Below the pieces are notes generated by a model, which was not told the origin of the DNA, made no database searches, and saw only the letters and a list, made by a program, of their open reading frames with translations. A program made the position numbers and the translations under genes. This document shows positions 13,961 through 24,791 of a DNA stretch of 64,000 bases, one piece after another. Origin of the DNA: a phage; sequence record OZ346212.1, one strand, 5' to 3'. Every line of letters starts with the position of its first letter. Positions within the stretch are counted from its first letter, which is position 1.

Positions 13961-13990
13961 AAAAAGGGGCCAAACGGCCCCTTTCTTTTT
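13961..13990. terminator. bidirectional rho-independent terminator between convergent operons
   Basis: AAAAA-GGGGCC-aaac-GGCCCC-TTTCTTTTT; A-tract upstream and T-tract downstream. Confidence 0.75.
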
Positions 13991-16174: not shown

Positions 16175-16741
16175 TTATTCAAACTGCAATAGTAAGTCCA
16201 CCACCGCGCTAGGTCTGTCAACAAATTCCCCAGGTCCACATGCCCACAGAGGGTATCCGTCTACATACCGCCAAATCCAACCTGCAGTGTGGAGTTCGAG
16301 CAGGGCAGTACCGTCCTTACTGTCAACCACTCTTTCCCACAGTGTCGGGCAGCGAAGCTTGAGGATCGGATCCCCTCCCTTATACCCATCCATGTAGATA
16401 CCCATTGCAAAGTTCAGCATCATCTTTTTGTGCACTGATCTTTTACTGAGGGTACTCATCACTTCCTCTTTGTGAATGTTTGTAAGCTTCTCCTTGGCTA
16501 CCCGCAGATCGTTGCAACCATTGTTCAGCAGATCTTCCAGACACTTGATCCGAAGGTCGTGAATGTCTTTGTCGTGTACCGTTGGCACAGGGTCGTAGCG
16601 GTATAGCACTGTTGATACAAGGTTGCTCGGGTGTGGGTCTGACAGCAACCCATAACCCCAATACTCTTCTGTATCTGAAAGGACAAGACACCCAATGTCT
16701 CTGTCAAGCTTTCCTGTGTTGTAAGCCACATTGACCGCCAT
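16175..16741 (-). CDS. hypothetical protein (188 aa)
   Basis: ORF in - strand operon with SD-like GGAGC upstream. Confidence 0.6.
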   Translation of the reverse strand: MAVNVAYNTGKLDRDIGCLVLSDTEEYWGYGLLSDPHPSNLVSTVLYRYDPVPTVHDKDIHDLRIKCLEDLLNNGCNDLRVAKEKLTNIHKEEVMSTLSKRSVHKKMMLNFAMGIYMDGYKGGDPILKLRCPTLWERVVDSKDGTALLELHTAGWIWRYVDGYPLWACGPGEFVDRPSAVVDLLLQFE

Positions 16742-16743
16742 GA

Positions 16744-16989
16744 CTATAGCTCCACTAGCAAAGTGCTTTCAAAGTGACGTTCATGCAGACCGTTGTAAGG
16801 GACCACTTCCACAACGCCATCACGGACATATGGGGCCATCATGGTGGTATAATCTCCAAACGGGTTGGTATTGTCACTAACCACAACCACCTTCTGCCCT
16901 TCCTTGGCAGAGTGCCAAATAGATCTGCACTTCATCAGGTGTTCGAGAGCCCCAGGTAAAATTTTGTTACGTTCTTTACGGGTCTTCAT
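16744..16989 (-). CDS. hypothetical protein (81 aa)
   Basis: ORF with SD AAGGAG upstream. Confidence 0.6.
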   Translation of the reverse strand: MKTRKERNKILPGALEHLMKCRSIWHSAKEGQKVVVVSDNTNPFGDYTTMMAPYVRDGVVEVVPYNGLHERHFESTLLVEL

Positions 16990-17435
16990 AACAGGTATAG
17001 CTCCTTATGAAAGTGATCTTTTAATTTCTCACTGAGAAACTTCTTGATACCTTCCTCTAAAGTGTTTTCGATGTAGTCCAGCTTAACTGCTTCGATGGAC
17101 ATATCATAGATCGCCAGCTCTAAGCTGTCAAGTCCCATCATAGCATGAACCATAAGATTTTCATCTTCAGATACATTCAGGGGACTTCCTATAACATCTG
17201 GAGGCAGAATAGTTTCCCAATTATTCTGGGTGGTAGTTCTCCCTCCCTCTACTTTACGGCGCAGTTCGAATGTGTTCTTAGTGTAGAACACTTCATAAGA
17301 AACGATACGACTGTCGCTCTCGTAATAAACGAAGTTCAGGTAGGAGCCTAGCCGCAGTCGGCAAACTTCTACCCCAAACCATTGTTTCTTATAAGAATTC
17401 AGGCTAATGCTGTCGCATTCACGTTTGCTCAACAC
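16986..17435 (-). CDS. hypothetical protein (149 aa; start GTG 17435 or TTG 17432)
   Basis: ORF preceded by AAGGAGAGAG; non-ATG start. Confidence 0.55.
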   Translation of the reverse strand: MLSKRECDSISLNSYKKQWFGVEVCRLRLGSYLNFVYYESDSRIVSYEVFYTKNTFELRRKVEGGRTTTQNNWETILPPDVIGSPLNVSEDENLMVHAMMGLDSLELAIYDMSIEAVKLDYIENTLEEGIKKFLSEKLKDHFHKELYLL

Positions 17436-17451: not shown

Positions 17452-17688
17452 TTAATCTTCGTAAATCAGGATTTCTGCTTTAGGTTTTCGTGCTTTCATG
17501 TCCAGCTCTATCCAGTGCACCATAGCTGTTTCAAGAAAAACAGCCTGGATGCATCCGTCCTCAGCAGCGTGTCCTAGCAGCATAACAAGATCTTCTCCTT
17601 CGTCATCTGCACCACGAACATACAGAATCTCCCCGGGTTCAAAATCTTTAACAACCTGATTGTTGGATAATTTACGAATTTTCGCCAT
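17452..17688 (-). CDS. small protein, member 4 of tandem paralog array (78 aa)
   Basis: Shares the PGE..V....DDEG...V..L...WIELDMK pattern with the three upstream 87-aa genes. Confidence 0.6.
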   Translation of the reverse strand: MAKIRKLSNNQVVKDFEPGEILYVRGADDEGEDLVMLLGHAAEDGCIQAVFLETAMVHWIELDMKARKPKAEILIYED

Positions 17689-17689
17689 A

Positions 17690-17953
17690 TTAGAAACCCT
17701 CTAAAAAGCTCTTGTAGAAAATAATTTCAGTATCTACACCAGTCACGATCTTATCGTTCCTGATTTCATCTGTAAGGTAGGTGTCAAAACGCAGAACCTG
17801 TGTGGTGTTGTCACACATCCACTCAGCTGTGACCATTGCGAAAATCTTAGCATCTTCATTATCTGGTGTGAATGTTACCACCTCACCGCACTTAAACTTT
17901 TCGATAGGCTGAGTGTTAGCTTTCGGTTCTGCGATAGTGATTTTTGTGGTCAT
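17690..17953 (-). CDS. small protein, member 3 of tandem paralog array (87 aa)
   Basis: SD GGAGGAG; motif F.CGEVV...IVTGVDTEIIFY parallels the neighbours. Confidence 0.65.
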   Translation of the reverse strand: MTTKITIAEPKANTQPIEKFKCGEVVTFTPDNEDAKIFAMVTAEWMCDNTTQVLRFDTYLTDEIRNDKIVTGVDTEIIFYKSFLEGF

Positions 17954-18216
17954 TATTCTCCTCCTTCTTTTGAATAGCTTGTCTCTCCAAGGATGGTAAT
18001 TTTGGTGTCAAGCTCTGTAACTTTCATGTTTGGCGGCAGATCGTACAACTCATTATTTTCTAAATCGAACCCCCACACACAATGTTCTCCTGTTTTGACA
18101 ATCATAACTATGTTTTGAATGCCGTCTCCGTCGCAACTTACCACAGTCCCACACGGAAAGCTGTCTGCACGCTTTTTGTTCTTCACCTTAGAATTGAATA
18201 CAATGCTGGTAGCCAT
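17953..18216 (-). CDS. small protein, member 2 of tandem paralog array (87 aa)
   Basis: SD GGAGGA; CGTVVSCDGDG...VTELDTKITILGE aligns with 18216..18479 product. Confidence 0.65.
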   Translation of the reverse strand: MATSIVFNSKVKNKKRADSFPCGTVVSCDGDGIQNIVMIVKTGEHCVWGFDLENNELYDLPPNMKVTELDTKITILGETSYSKEGGE

Positions 18217-18479
18217 TATTGTTCCTCCACCATAACTTCGCCAATAATTTCTATGCAGGCATCCATTTCTGTAACAACCAAACTGTGAGGTAGTTCTACA
18301 AACACCTTTCTGAACAGGTCAAATACCCCAACATATATGTTTGCAGGATGTGATTTTACAACAAGTGCTGTATTCACATCCCCAAGTTCATCAACAAACA
18401 TCACCACAGTGCCTGGAGCTACTGAGGACAGATACTTCTTAGTTTTACGGTTTGATGCAAATTTTAACTCTGTTGCCAT
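18216..18479 (-). CDS. small protein, member 1 of tandem paralog array (87 aa)
   Basis: SD GAGGAGG; PGTVVMFVDELGD...VTEMDACIEIIGE. Confidence 0.65.
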   Translation of the reverse strand: MATELKFASNRKTKKYLSSVAPGTVVMFVDELGDVNTALVVKSHPANIYVGVFDLFRKVFVELPHSLVVTEMDACIEIIGEVMVEEQ

Positions 18480-18494
18480 AAATAACCTCCTCTC

Positions 18495-19955
18495 TTACTT
18501 AGCGTACTCGATTAATTCCACAGTTTTACCAAAGCTCGGGATATAATTTTTATTATACCCCTCAGTGAGGACCCATAGAGTATCGTACTTTTTCCACTTG
18601 TTGTCAACAACCTTTTGTTCAAAGTTATGCTCAAAGTATAGGTCGGTCAGGACGATGACATCTTTTGCATTAGGTATGTTGGCATCCAGATACTCGAACA
18701 CGCAAGCAGCTGTTGTGCCCCATGTTGAGTGGACCTCATAGTTGATCATCTCGTCTATGTTGCCGCGAGTGTATACTTTAACCTCTCCAACCTCAGTTGA
18801 CCAACAGAACATTGTAACCTTAAACTCTTTATACAGATTGCACAATCCGGTGATTTCATTGAACATTTTCTTTAAAGTTCTTTGAGAGATCGAGCCAGAA
18901 ACGTCTAAAGCCACCACAATATCTATAGTGTTTTCCGGATTACGACCAGGAACAATAACGTGCTGGTTCTTGTTTATAGCCCCAACTTTTCGCATTGTGC
19001 TGGTCAAAGACCCAGATCGGCGACCAGGTTTTCTGTAGGTCAGTTCGGCCTTTCTTTTAGACAACATACGTTGCTTAATGATGTCTATATAGTTGATTAC
19101 AGGCTTACCTCTGTTCTTGACAAACTCACGCACCGCCTCAGGGCAACGGCCTCCGGACGCTTGCATTGCTGCCTCCAGCATATCACCAGAGTCCTGCATG
19201 GCCTGATCTTTATCAGATTGGCTGATTACAGGTTGTGGCTGATCATACCCCATAGCCTTTCCAAGATTATCACTGGTGCCACCGTTCCCACTCATGTGAT
19301 CATCGGTTTGTCGCTTATCACTTTGAGAGTTCTCACCTTTACCGTTCTTACTTTTACCGTTATTCTGATCTCTTTGCTTATCAAGAACTGCATAAACGTT
19401 CTCAGCAATCCATCCATGAAACTTCATGTCGCAGTAGCAGCTGGCTAAGAAGCCAAAAGGCTTACCTTTCATGAACGTAGTGCTTTTCCCCTTCGGGAAG
19501 AAAACACAAGGGGGTTTGCTAAAGTCAACCACAAGGCCTGTGTTGATAACGTGATCACAAGCAATATTGAACAGTTCCGGCTCAAAGCTTTTACCACGGA
19601 CTAGGTGATCACAGATAATATGCCCCACCTCATGTGACAGAAGGAAGGCCACCTCTTTCACAGATTTTGGGGAATAGAAAACTTCAGCCATCTCAAACTG
19701 CTCGTCAGTTAGAGAAGCCTTAAGAATAGCCTTGCGCTCATCAGCCAATCCCATAATGAACTCAGGACTGTAATAGATGCGTTTATGGTCGGTTGCCATG
19801 GTGGAGCACCATGTGTGGTTTTCTACGAACTGCAACCCTGACAGTAGTGTGCCATAAAACGGCAGCTTTTCAAGGAGATACATACGTGCAGCCTGCAACA
19901 TTCTCAGGGCATCATCTTTCTGCGAGGCAATGATTTCTGAACTTCTGCTATCCAT
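18495..19955 (-). CDS. metallopeptidase-like / von Willebrand factor A domain protein (about 486 aa)
   Basis: HExxH zinc-metallopeptidase-like motif (HEVGHIICDH) in N-terminal half; MIDAS-type VWA motif (VVALDVSGS) in C-terminal half; start set to ATG 19955 (SD GGAG) because ATG 19976 lies in the loop of a hairpin. Confidence 0.7.
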   Translation of the reverse strand: MDSRSSEIIASQKDDALRMLQAARMYLLEKLPFYGTLLSGLQFVENHTWCSTMATDHKRIYYSPEFIMGLADERKAILKASLTDEQFEMAEVFYSPKSVKEVAFLLSHEVGHIICDHLVRGKSFEPELFNIACDHVINTGLVVDFSKPPCVFFPKGKSTTFMKGKPFGFLASCYCDMKFHGWIAENVYAVLDKQRDQNNGKSKNGKGENSQSDKRQTDDHMSGNGGTSDNLGKAMGYDQPQPVISQSDKDQAMQDSGDMLEAAMQASGGRCPEAVREFVKNRGKPVINYIDIIKQRMLSKRKAELTYRKPGRRSGSLTSTMRKVGAINKNQHVIVPGRNPENTIDIVVALDVSGSISQRTLKKMFNEITGLCNLYKEFKVTMFCWSTEVGEVKVYTRGNIDEMINYEVHSTWGTTAACVFEYLDANIPNAKDVIVLTDLYFEHNFEQKVVDNKWKKYDTLWVLTEGYNKNYIPSFGKTVELIEYAK

Positions 19956-19968
19956 TAAAACTCCAGAA

Positions 19969-19983
19969 GGGGCCATCGGCCCC
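19969..19983 (-). terminator. hairpin between - strand genes, possible terminator/attenuator
   Basis: GGGGCC-atc-GGCCCC, followed on the - strand by U-rich ttctggagtttta. Confidence 0.35.
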
Positions 19984-19988
19984 TGTCA

Positions 19989-21029
19989 TTATTTAACGTG
20001 TTTGAAAATACCTGCCAACTCGGTCATTGTCATGCGGGTGGTCTTCATAAGATCTGTCATAGCTTTCTCCATAATTGGAGATACTACCATAAAGTTTCCT
20101 TTAGTGAAACCTTTATTCCAGTCGGTCACCAACAGGGGTTTAAGTCCAGCTCCAAGACGTTCACCAGTTAAAGCACAGCATTTGCGAATATACGAACTCT
20201 TAAATTGGCTGAACGACAGATCAACTTTCATACCTACATCGTAGAACGTTTGACAATAGAAAGTGTAAGCTTTGGCAATCTCAACATCATCAGGTAGTGC
20301 AGGAACCTCTTCTGTAAGCTCCTCTTCGACCTCCTGAGTCTCTTTTTCCTCTTCATGCACCTGTTGCGTCATTTCTTCAATCTCTTCTGTGATAGGCTCG
20401 TTTACAATGTCGGAAATGTGCTTCTTGGGTGCACGATAAGTAACTTTAGACATCGGTAGCATATCTTCCTCCTCTTCTTCGTCAAAGAGTGCTAGTTTAT
20501 CCTCTTCCGTTCCATATTGCAAGATGAAATCTTCAAAAGTATAATCACCTTTCAATTTCTCCATACGCTCTTCGCTCAGGTGGAGCATCATCTGCTGGAC
20601 AATTTTTCGATCAGTTTCGTCTTTAATCAAGACTGCAGTCTTTTTATCTACCAGACAGTCCTTTAGAGAGTTGCATCTCAATCCCACCACACAACAGTTA
20701 TCAACCGCATAAGGACCTTCATCATCTATCCGCTCCAGAGATGGGTAGAAAGGATTCCCCAGCCCGTTTTCATCTGTGTGCATGTCAAAAGGTATAAGGG
20801 TATAGTCGCATACTCCATCTCCTAAAAGTTTTTTACCAAATAGGAGGTATTCTTCCCATGACAGGTCGAACTCTATATCTCGTTTCCGTGCGTTATTCTG
20901 TTTGCGTCTATATTTTTTGAGCAAGCGCTCTAACTCTTCTGGTGTATAATATTTTTCAAGATTCATGAGTCGTCTCTCGTGCTCTGTAAGTGAAGAAATC
21001 GTATCAATTGTCTCAACAGATGTCAACAT
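19989..21029 (-). CDS. hypothetical protein with two related Cys-containing domains and an acidic linker (346 aa)
   Basis: ATG 21029 preferred over TTG 21032; internal duplication (...PSLERIDDEGPYAVDNCCVVGLRCN... and ...CCALTGERL...NFMVVSP...); internal ATG sits in a 29-bp repeat shared with 22292..22320. Confidence 0.6.
   Translation of the reverse strand: MLTSVETIDTISSLTEHERRLMNLEKYYTPEELERLLKKYRRKQNNARKRDIEFDLSWEEYLLFGKKLLGDGVCDYTLIPFDMHTDENGLGNPFYPSLERIDDEGPYAVDNCCVVGLRCNSLKDCLVDKKTAVLIKDETDRKIVQQMMLHLSEERMEKLKGDYTFEDFILQYGTEEDKLALFDEEEEEDMLPMSKVTYRAPKKHISDIVNEPITEEIEEMTQQVHEEEKETQEVEEELTEEVPALPDDVEIAKAYTFYCQTFYDVGMKVDLSFSQFKSSYIRKCCALTGERLGAGLKPLLVTDWNKGFTKGNFMVVSPIMEKAMTDLMKTTRMTMTELAGIFKHVK
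20431..20459. repeat. 29-bp sequence identical (inverted) to 22292..22320, includes an ATG
   Basis: Reverse complement of 20431..20459 = TACCGATGTCTAAAGTTACTTATCGTGCA = 22292..22320. Confidence 0.8.
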
Positions 21030-23337: not shown

Positions 23338-23607
23338 ATGTTATACCAGCAATATGAACTTCGTGCAGAAAAAGAGTTAAATTTTGACAAAGATATTCAC
23401 AGATATTATTATGGGAAAGTTAGAGGGCAAGCAAGAAAGTGTACTCCAACACTCTTTTATGCCAGCAGACGACTAGCGCCAGAAGAGGCAACAGCAGAAA
23501 GGGTTGCGTACAACTGGAGAGTCACGTATGATATTGACAGATTCGATGTGATATCTGTTTTGGAAAACTTTGAAAACACTTACACACAAGTAGAGGACTT
23601 TTACTAA
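23338..23607 (+). CDS. hypothetical protein (89 aa)
   Basis: ORF with SD AAGGAG upstream. Confidence 0.6.
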   Translation: MLYQQYELRAEKELNFDKDIHRYYYGKVRGQARKCTPTLFYASRRLAPEEATAERVAYNWRVTYDIDRFDVISVLENFENTYTQVEDFY

Positions 23608-24791
23608 TGTCAAGAAACGTATTCGAAAGTGGTCAAATCACTGTCCGTGAGTTGCCAGCTATTATTCAGTTTGCCCAACGTCATAGCCGATCTGTCCTAA
23701 TTTTGGGACCAATGGGTGTGGGTAAAAGCCAGGTGATGAAGCAGATCGCTGATAATATGTTCGGTGAGCGAGATGACAACCTTGTTGACGTGCGACTGTC
23801 AGATAAAGATCCTGCCGACTTATCTGGGCTACCTATCCCTGTAGAAGCGGATGGAACTACACGTACAGTGTTTGCAATTCCAGAATTTTGGCCTGCGGAT
23901 CCTGACTGGAGCGGAATTATCTTTCTGGATGAGCTCACTCATGCAGATAACTACCTGCAAAAGGTTGCAATGCAAATTATGCTTGACCACAAGTGCGGCA
24001 CCTATGCATTCCCTAAGGGTTCTGTTTTTGTGGCTGCGGGTAACCGTTCTACAGATGGTGCGGTTCTTTCGGCGCTCGAAGCCCCTCTGGCTAACCGTTT
24101 TATCATTGTAGAGGTTACAAGCAATGCAGAGGTGTTTATTGAGGACTACGCATTCCTCAACGGGGTTCACTCCTCTGTAATTGGGTATCTGAAAAGAGTT
24201 CCATCAGCTATTGATAATTATGAGGCTATGGCTGAGATTAATTGTCCATCTTTTGCCACACCACGATCTTGGGTTGCTGCATCTGACATCTTGCACGATT
24301 TTGACAGCGGTATTATTTCTGACGCTATGGCCCGTGTTCTTCTGCAAGGTGCTATTGGTCACACTGCAGCGGTAGAGATCTGGACATACCACACCAAGAA
24401 ACGCAATTTACCGGAAATCGGTCGGATTATGGCAGGTGGCTGCAAAGAATACGTAGGCCCTAAGCAGCCAGACATTTTGTGGATTCTTGGATCTGAAGGT
24501 TGTATCGCTATTCGTAATATGATGGAAAATGCAAGTATCTCAGACGAAGATCTTGTCAGCTGTGTGGCAAACTTCCTCGATTTCCTTTGGGAAAACTTCA
24601 AGGACGAGAACCGAGATTTTGTATTCTCAGTCTTTATGGCGATGATGAAACCTAATGCCTTAGGAAATGCCTTGCTTATCGGTAAAGGGCGTGACAAGAT
24701 TGTTGCTCAGCTGATCAAAGCATACCCAAACCTGATGAAGATTGTAAAAGAGTTTGGTGAAGAGTTTAGCGCCATTTTGGCTAAAGCTTAA
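23607..24791 (+). CDS. MoxR-like AAA+ ATPase (394 aa)
   Basis: Walker A GPMGVGKS and Walker B IIFLDELTHA; size and layout typical of MoxR/AAA_5 ATPases. Confidence 0.75.
   Translation: MSRNVFESGQITVRELPAIIQFAQRHSRSVLILGPMGVGKSQVMKQIADNMFGERDDNLVDVRLSDKDPADLSGLPIPVEADGTTRTVFAIPEFWPADPDWSGIIFLDELTHADNYLQKVAMQIMLDHKCGTYAFPKGSVFVAAGNRSTDGAVLSALEAPLANRFIIVEVTSNAEVFIEDYAFLNGVHSSVIGYLKRVPSAIDNYEAMAEINCPSFATPRSWVAASDILHDFDSGIISDAMARVLLQGAIGHTAAVEIWTYHTKKRNLPEIGRIMAGGCKEYVGPKQPDILWILGSEGCIAIRNMMENASISDEDLVSCVANFLDFLWENFKDENRDFVFSVFMAMMKPNALGNALLIGKGRDKIVAQLIKAYPNLMKIVKEFGEEFSAILAKA

Follow-up and report, generated by a model that had tools for sequence, protein, structure and literature searches.

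What are four small genes standing in a row on one strand of a phage genome, are they copies of one another, and what might they do for the phage? The question is raised by sequence record OZ346212.1, a phage sequence of which a stretch of 64,000 nucleotides (nt), called the window here, was analysed. At positions 17452 to 18479 of the window, four minus-strand open reading frames (ORFs) of 87, 87, 87 and 78 amino acids (aa) follow each other in the direction of transcription, and we refer to them as genes A, B, C and D (Table 1). Over 5 kb around them, the sequence is identical (100%) to that of Escherichia phage naswa, an rV5-like myovirus of Vequintavirus murica (MN850595.1), and 95 to 99.7% identical to more than 110 other records. 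All four products are annotated as hypothetical proteins in MN850595.1, and their counterparts in phage Murica are gp13 to gp16. An earlier note, made from the sequence alone, had described the genes, with the lengths given above, as a locally amplified array of paralogs. As set out below, the comparisons point to a single family that would have grown from one gene, in which two members are exceptionally constrained and the first position is exchanged between lineages as a cassette.

Each ORF is indeed preceded by the strong Shine-Dalgarno sequence that the note had pointed out (in transcription order GGAGG, GGAGG, AGGAGG and GAGGG). The stop-start overlap that it had ascribed to all of the genes is found at the A/B and B/C junctions, where it amounts to 1 nt (TAATG), but not between C and D, which are separated by a 1-nt gap. 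The tight gene spacing suggests translational coupling.

Pairwise comparison alone fails to link all four genes. When Smith-Waterman scores were expressed as z-scores against 500 shuffles, A and B were clearly related (37% identity, z=20), and the values for the other pairs were 6.6 for C-D, 4.5 for B-C, 2.6 for B-D, 1.4 for A-C and 0.2 for A-D. Comparison of profiles with hhalign joined the A/B-type profile to that of C over the full length (89% probability, E 2e-6) and was weak for D (P of 0.006 against the A/B profile and 0.025 against C). After divergent members had been added, hidden Markov models (HMMs) that left out one type at a time were run against 549 real six-frame ORFs and 6,000 shuffles. 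The HMM of A/B-type and outgroup sequences, which contained neither C nor D, placed C at the top of 6,553 targets (E 2e-5), with the two D variants at ranks three and five; the HMM of A/B and C recovered D at 1e-4 to 8e-6, with no decoy scoring higher; and the HMM of A/B and D recovered C at 3e-8. A gene that occurs as a single copy in an outgroup clade matches A, B, C and D alike by BLASTP, at 2e-4 to 1e-3. By these sequence comparisons A, B, C and D are all homologous and constitute one paralogous family, with D as the least certain member, and the paralogy proposed in the earlier note stands on similarity that goes beyond composition. The motifs that it had named are shared unevenly. The N-terminal MAT/MTT/MAK and the (P/C)G(T/E)(V/I)(V/L) stretch are present, but VTE(L/M)D..I.I.GE is clear only in A and B, and across the family Met1, one Gly and one Ile are the only invariant positions. 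A neighbour-joining tree resolves six clades, namely A, B, the type represented by rV5 gp014 (with the metagenomic protein P0043), the outgroup, C and D, and groups C with D at 75% bootstrap. Small neighbouring proteins scored at noise level against the family, including gp018 and gp020 of the window, several ORFs of A7_1, and PVP-SE1 gp217, GAP31_032 and Mydo_041, whose genes stand between Srd-like and DUF2201.

The public collections do not record this relationship. A, B and rV5 gp014 are assigned to phrog_10698, C to phrog_12861 and D to phrog_12046, and each protein of the window matches its own phrog from end to end (E 1e-41 to 1e-62; 2e-42 for A); the split into three PHROGs is in keeping with the mixed pairwise similarity. 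In the naswa record, the pVOG tag VOG5597 is attached to A and B only. PHROGs and pVOG hold the same proteins, all under 'unknown function', but file them as three unrelated families, and the common origin of all four, together with a single-copy ancestor, is new here. A skeptic might take some or all of the ORFs as spurious, or their likeness as compositional only, given that the ORFs are short, that the A-C and A-D scores resemble those of shuffles and that three PHROGs are involved. This is refuted by the selection and profile data and is hardly credible: besides the Shine-Dalgarno sequence before each ORF, the genes are conserved in 118 genomes with a ratio of nonsynonymous to synonymous divergence (dN/dS) far below 1, all 6,549 decoys score below the profile and intermediate-sequence links, and the structure models described below, although not independent of each other, are confident and concordant.

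The distribution of the family was examined at several depths. A word-seeded search of 5.8 billion proteins returned 42 clusters, every one from contigs about as long as an rV5-like phage genome, an exhaustive HMMER scan of 1.84 billion representatives gave 12 hits, consisting of family members and three giant repeat proteins, and a broadened profile collected 87 clusters, all of them from the genus Vequintavirus and its sister clade. Judged by these searches, the family appears confined to Vequintavirus and this one sister clade. The giant repetitive proteins, P0044 (6238 aa), P0046 (4459 aa) and P0047 (2353 aa), were rejected as relatives, with only 6 to 11 short matching stretches each. All three match the family profile through a G-E-V-V-A-V...D-E-V-L-I-V-Q-E-L hairpin. 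In P0047, where no Pfam domain passes the threshold, the hairpin recurs as G-(E/D)-(I/V)-V-A-V...D-E-V-L-I-V-Q-E-L and forms part of a longer repeat; the matches to all three are probably convergent or of low information.

Among 50,697 phage records, 118 carry the family, every one of them Vequintavirus. C and D are found as one copy each in 118 of 118. The first slot of the array is variable: it holds A and B in 44 of the 118 and a single gp014-type gene in the other 74, rV5 included. The rV5 gp014 protein (85 aa) shares about 39% identity with each of A and B. A more divergent lineage (L008-L010) also has four genes, of 88, 85, 87 and 77 aa. The sister clade is represented by metagenomic contigs only (117 to 140 kb), with 62% identity in the protein of the DUF2201 gene that precedes the array and 65% in that of the Srd-like gene before it; in 5 of 5 contigs examined, one family member lies between the same flanking genes. 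More distant Vequintavirinae have no member at this site: in Seunavirus (PVP-SE1 and GAP31), Mydovirus and A7_1, the gp017 homolog that otherwise follows the array comes directly after DUF2201, and no adjoining small ORF at this site matches the family profiles. The site accordingly holds no copy in Seunavirus and Mydovirus, a single one in the sister clade, three in rV5 and four in the murica type, which bears out the local amplification that had been proposed from the window alone. In the simplest history, the last ancestor shared by Vequintavirus and the sister clade would have had a single gene between DUF2201 and the gp017 homolog; serial duplication in the Vequintavirus stem would have turned it into a tandem array, and a gene-for-gene replacement in the first slot would have come later.

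The replacement itself is seen in the DNA. Sliding identity between naswa and rV5 is 93 to 100% up to the start codon of A, drops to 50% or less, or becomes unalignable, across A and B, and returns to 97 to 100% just inside C. This is a clean cassette replacement, of A and B by gp014, between genomes that are nearly identical elsewhere. The recombination tract behind the loss of A and B may extend into C and D. Within the C and D region listed in Table 1, the synonymous divergence (dS) between naswa and rV5 is 0.33 to 0.38 and parts of the DNA are only 83 to 87% identical, with proteins that are barely changed; across gp017 to gp021, dS is 0.07 to 0.18, several-fold below that of C and D. A gp014-type protein, P0043, was also observed on small metagenomic contigs (L014 1355-1606, and L015), with a HAD-like protein of 211 aa encoded upstream and a cysteine-rich protein of 143 aa downstream. 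This different gene context suggests that the cassette is mobile, either from one site in the genome to another or across lineages of phages.

Selection was assessed by comparing naswa with the divergent four-gene lineage, a distance at which the synonymous sites of the neighbouring genes are saturated. Those neighbours are 58% (Srd-like), 82% (DUF2201), 61% (gp017), 55% (gp019) and 37% (gp020) identical at the protein level. A (56%, dN/dS 0.22) and B (64%) diverge at this background rate of the operon. C and D, at 97% and 94% identity and dN/dS of 0.03 to 0.04, are better conserved than even the adjacent DUF2201 enzyme gene, and they are under extreme purifying selection. C is at least 94% identical in all 118 records, and it is 100% identical in protein sequence to rV5 gp015 although 30% of the synonymous sites differ; such synonymous change beneath an unchanged protein shows that what is conserved is the protein, and that these are real genes. 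The paralogs among themselves are 16 to 39% identical and saturated at synonymous sites, so that they diverged anciently and not in a recent burst. Positive selection on A and B was considered and none was detected, with synonymous sites saturated and a measurable dN/dS of 0.22. The earlier note had read the array as diversifying under host-interaction selection. This applies at most to the first slot, which varies by cassette exchange; positive selection was not found, and the nearly frozen C and D show the reverse.

The pattern invites comparison with the hyperplastic small-gene cassettes of large lytic phages, such as the internal-protein (IP) locus of T-even phages, whose products are packaged in the virion and include a known anti-restriction example. 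Like that locus, the array consists of small paralogous or analogous genes between conserved anchors, with cassettes exchanged among close relatives at sharp boundaries. Unlike the IP genes, C and D are invariant rather than variable, and the virion proteins listed for rV5 do not include those of the array: gp014 to gp016 are absent from those named in the main text of the rV5 study, and their identifiers from the available parts of its supplements (PMC3606486).

AlphaFold2 models were made for B, from an 11-row family alignment, and for D. B is predicted with a predicted local distance difference test score (pLDDT) of 77.8 to be all-beta, with strands at residues 2-16, 25-30, 33-42, 47-51, 56-60 and 65-76. 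The D model (pLDDT 81) has strands at 21-25, 32-42, 46-51, 56-61 and 65-67 and is without the long N-terminal strand. The order of the core strands is the same in both, although both models derive from alignments of mixed types and are not independent of each other. The predicted core corresponds to the SH3-like small beta-barrel superfold, with five strongly bent antiparallel strands in about 50 to 60 residues. A search of BFVD with the B model returned orthologs of A and gp014, with a template modelling score (TM) of 0.77 for the A ortholog, and then unrelated, uncharacterised phage proteins of 70 to 90 aa; the D model returned its own ortholog, many of the proteins matched by B, and the A ortholog at rank 5 (E 5e-3). 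All members are acidic (pI 4.2 to 5.7). The A, B and gp014 types combine a basic N-terminus, with a charge of +2 to +4 over 20 residues in the A/B type, with an acidic C-terminal tail. By direct reading, none of the sequences has a hydrophobic stretch of the length needed for a membrane span or signal peptide.

Searches against known families agree with the earlier judgement that the function is not evident from sequence. Scans of all four proteins against Pfam, NCBIfam and PADLOC gave nothing meaningful (NCBIfam, noise of 11.7 to 13 bits against cut-offs of 207 and 775; PADLOC defence profiles, 0 families at E up to 1), and PDB sequences, searched with two profiles and a single sequence, yielded no significant match. 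Literature searches that covered the early genes of rV5, phage DUF2201, screens of accessory genes and transcriptomics turned up no mention of the array genes. The top matches in both sequence and fold, all of them weak, are KOW/SH3-like domains (Spt5/NusG KOW, the C-domain of ribosomal uL2, eS4 KOW and domain I of eIF5A/EF-P). PDB KOW chains reach E values of 0.39 and 0.61, which are not significant, and Pfam KOW (PF00467) matches none of 15 members at E up to 10. Unlike KOW domains, the array proteins are stand-alone and acidic, have an extra N-terminal strand, and occur in no ribosomal or NusG context. The models also resemble, at the level of predicted fold only, Tudor and the bacterial Tudor-like domains that interact with RNA polymerase (RNAP), such as the C-terminal domain of UvrD/PcrA and the RID of CarD/TRCF; one Trp and a few aromatic residues are present, none of them invariant across the family. 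Outside the family, the best BFVD matches of both models (TM 0.6 to 0.8) are N4 gp21 (74 aa), an 87-aa protein of vB_EcoP_SU7, and proteins of phages 172-1, LAMP, Cronus and Hera. These barrels are of similar size, but they share 10 to 24% identity with the array proteins, no profile-level similarity to them was found, and they have no known function.

A barrel of this kind raises the possibility that the paralogs assemble, as Sm/LSm proteins do, into homo- or hetero-oligomers that bind nucleic acid or mimic KOW domains on the transcription-translation machinery. Small SH3/Sm-like barrels often oligomerise, and duplicated subunits typically hetero-oligomerise; stop/start coupling favours matched co-expression, obligate interfaces between subunits would be in line with the constraint on C and D, and both the basic A/B-type N-termini and the weak KOW matches point in the same direction. 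We nevertheless regard it as unlikely. The overall acidity of the proteins would be unusual in nucleic-acid binders; the copy number varies from 1 to 4 and A plus B can be replaced by one gene, so that no fixed stoichiometry is required; and the models lack the N-terminal helix of Sm/Hfq proteins (none of at least 4 residues), with no match to Pfam LSM or Hfq.

One record in nr, the sister-clade protein DAM57277.1 (P0067), is named DUF1883, which would make the family a remote DUF1883 branch acting as a decoy or antagonist of host immune proteins that contain this domain. DUF1883 is a small beta-rich domain that occurs alone or fused to bacterial TIR domains; the TIR-DUF1883 architecture is common in bacteria, and the domain is predicted to bind ligands or proteins (PMC9153377, bioRxiv 10.1101/2025.08.20.671228). 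The label was not reproduced, since hmmscan found no match to DUF1883 (PF08980) among 15 members at E up to 10, and we hold this origin to be very improbable.

The surroundings of the array in the window are listed in Table 1.

Table 1. Features of the array and its neighbourhood (coordinates in the window)
Feature	Coordinates	Strand	Description
Gene A	18216-18479	-	87 aa; naswa_83; A/B-type, subtype A; first gene of the array; basic N-terminus, acidic C-terminal tail
Gene B	17953-18216	-	87 aa; naswa_82; A/B-type, subtype B
Gene C	17690-17953	-	87 aa; naswa_81; divergent paralog; protein identical to rV5 gp015
Gene D	17452-17688	-	78 aa; naswa_80; most divergent paralog; very acidic; about 92% identical to rV5 gp016
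Exchangeable cassette interval (A+B)	17934-18474	-	rV5-type genomes have a single gene of a third subtype, gp014, instead
C and D region of raised dS	17574-17813	-	naswa compared with rV5
DUF2201 gene (rV5 gp012)	18495-19976	-	DUF2201_N putative metallopeptidase with VWA-like DUF2201 domain; Pfam PF13203 4e-28, PF09967 6e-11
gp017 homolog	16986-17435	-	149 aa; GTG start; conserved 3' anchor of the array
gp019 homolog	16175-16741	-	single copy in the window
Srd-like protein	19989-20966	-	putative sigma-70/sigma-S decoy; first gene of the operon; phrog_4592, phrog_1400
Sigma-70-type promoter-like site	20998-21026	-	TTGACA-17-TACGAT with TG; upstream of the Srd-like gene; consensus scan
Bidirectional terminator	near 13963-13984		end of the operon
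MoxR-type ATPase	23607-24791	+	on the divergent early operon

The minus-strand operon runs from the promoter-like site through the Srd-like gene, DUF2201, A, B, C and D to the homologs of gp017 to gp026. The DUF2201 gene is the conserved 5' anchor of the array and is syntenic in all relatives. The promoter-like site matches the position of 'Sigma70-type promoter; P11' in the rV5 record and is likely the early promoter of the operon. The Srd-like protein of rV5 is a putative sigma-70/sigma-S decoy (PMC3606486). The label 'anti-termination' in phage 10C2 belongs to this Srd-like gene and not to the array.

MoxR-type ATPases are the usual partners of VWA proteins, and the one encoded on the divergent operon is likely the partner of the DUF2201/VWA protein. 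The array genes might then encode accessory subunits, adaptors or substrates of this machine, with the paralogs diversifying its recognition. A family member begins 12 to 15 nt downstream of DUF2201 in Vequintavirus and in 5 of 5 sister-clade contigs, the ATPase gene is close by, and in N4 a similar small barrel, gp21, is encoded a few genes upstream of the MoxR/VWA pair gp24-gp25. The association does not hold more widely: over 340 other phages have DUF2201, and those examined (Seunavirus, Mydovirus, A7_1 and N4-like phages) show no detectable family member adjoining it; the gp014-type P0043 occurs in another context, with no DUF2201 within its 2.7-kb contig; and the likeness of N4 gp21 is at fold level only, at 16% identity. 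We consider such a role doubtful. In N4, gp21 (L017 2156-2380) lies three genes upstream of that pair, and PhAPEC7 has different small ORFs at the equivalent position (L016 2143-2840), which makes this a variable small-gene cluster beside the same enzyme pair in an unrelated family of phages.

Several further observations concern the same operon and its annotation. Over 460 phage records have a DUF2201 homolog, among them N4-like phages, jumbo phages and Bacillus phage G. In public records the gene is labelled 'HNH endonuclease', 'anti-sigma factor' or 'hydrolase'. The rV5 reference NC_011041.1 divides it into two overlapping coding sequences, gp012 and gp013 (L003 1757-3218); the intact naswa protein aligns to that reference in two pieces by tblastn, which indicates a frameshift or sequencing error in the reference. 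The gp017 homolog is named 'tail protein' through phrog_6790 in several records, probably an annotation artefact, given its position in the early operon and its absence from the named rV5 virion proteins. Seunavirus and Mydovirus have a conserved gene of 85 to 86 aa between the Srd-like and DUF2201 genes (L004 3668-3928, L005 3678-3935 and L006 3697-3957); its product, PVP-SE1 gp217, likewise mislabelled 'tail protein', has a hydrophobic V-G-x-x-V stretch and no detected sequence similarity to the array family. The gp019 homolog occurs as two tandem diverged paralogs in every sister-clade contig (L011 5938-6531 and 6577-7128; L019-L022), a second local duplication in the same operon. In the sister clade, the two divergent early operons are also separated by an inserted TnpB/Cas12f-like gene (379 aa; OrfB_IS605, Cas12f1-like_TNB; L011 and L012 1119-2258), which lies immediately upstream of the Srd-like gene. 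Finally, 16 GenBank records of 'Campylobacter phage' (for example MG065635.1 and MG065672.1, with host C. jejuni) are 95 to 99.7% identical here to E. coli rV5-like phages, which looks like host mislabelling or contamination in that submission series.

The reading that we favour, with a rough probability of 45%, is that A to D are non-enzymatic binding modules made early in infection, with C and D acting on conserved partners and an exchangeable first slot. Each product would be a small (78 to 87 aa), acidic, soluble, five-stranded beta-barrel of the SH3/KOW/Tudor-like class, and members of the A, B and C types would carry one more strand at the N-terminus. There are no conserved catalytic or metal-binding residues, and for that reason the proteins are most likely binding modules rather than enzymes. 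The array would be transcribed together with the Srd-like sigma decoy from the early sigma-70 promoter, an expression time that we infer from the operon context. In the first minutes of infection, the modules would attach to macromolecules of the host, or possibly of the phage, in the service of takeover or counter-defence. C and D would have acquired fixed functions after duplication and been held since then under very strong constraint, presumably by conserved partners, and the first slot, filled by A plus B or by a single gp014-type gene, would be a specificity cassette that is swapped between lineages.

A more pointed version of these early binding modules can be drawn, in which C, D and the swappable slot are modular KOW/Tudor-like mimics that dock on hubs of host transcription and translation or on a host immune sensor. 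Candidate hubs would be the partners of the NusG KOW domain (Rho or S10) and the RNAP beta lobe bound by UvrD and CarD. We rate this version as a long shot. If true, it would reveal a new family of phage takeover or counter-defence effectors that arose by duplication in situ, with a swappable member that tunes the set to variable host factors.

Large lytic phages commonly carry small early genes as tandem paralogs that encode generic barrels, and the array is an incremental case of gene-family growth, not a new kind of system. What it adds to the databases is that three families of orphan ORFs become one lineage-specific family, with a history leading from one gene to three or four, and that a swappable slot stands in contrast to two exceptionally constrained paralogs. 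The rV5-like phages are widely used, in phage therapy, in the biocontrol of E. coli O157 and in the BASEL reference collection, and to our knowledge their early operons are almost entirely unannotated. Given their conservation, C and D are the small early genes of the genus in which tests for host targets hold most promise. The exchange of A and B for gp014, in turn, provides a natural experiment for differences in host range or defence evasion between murica-type and V5-type phages.

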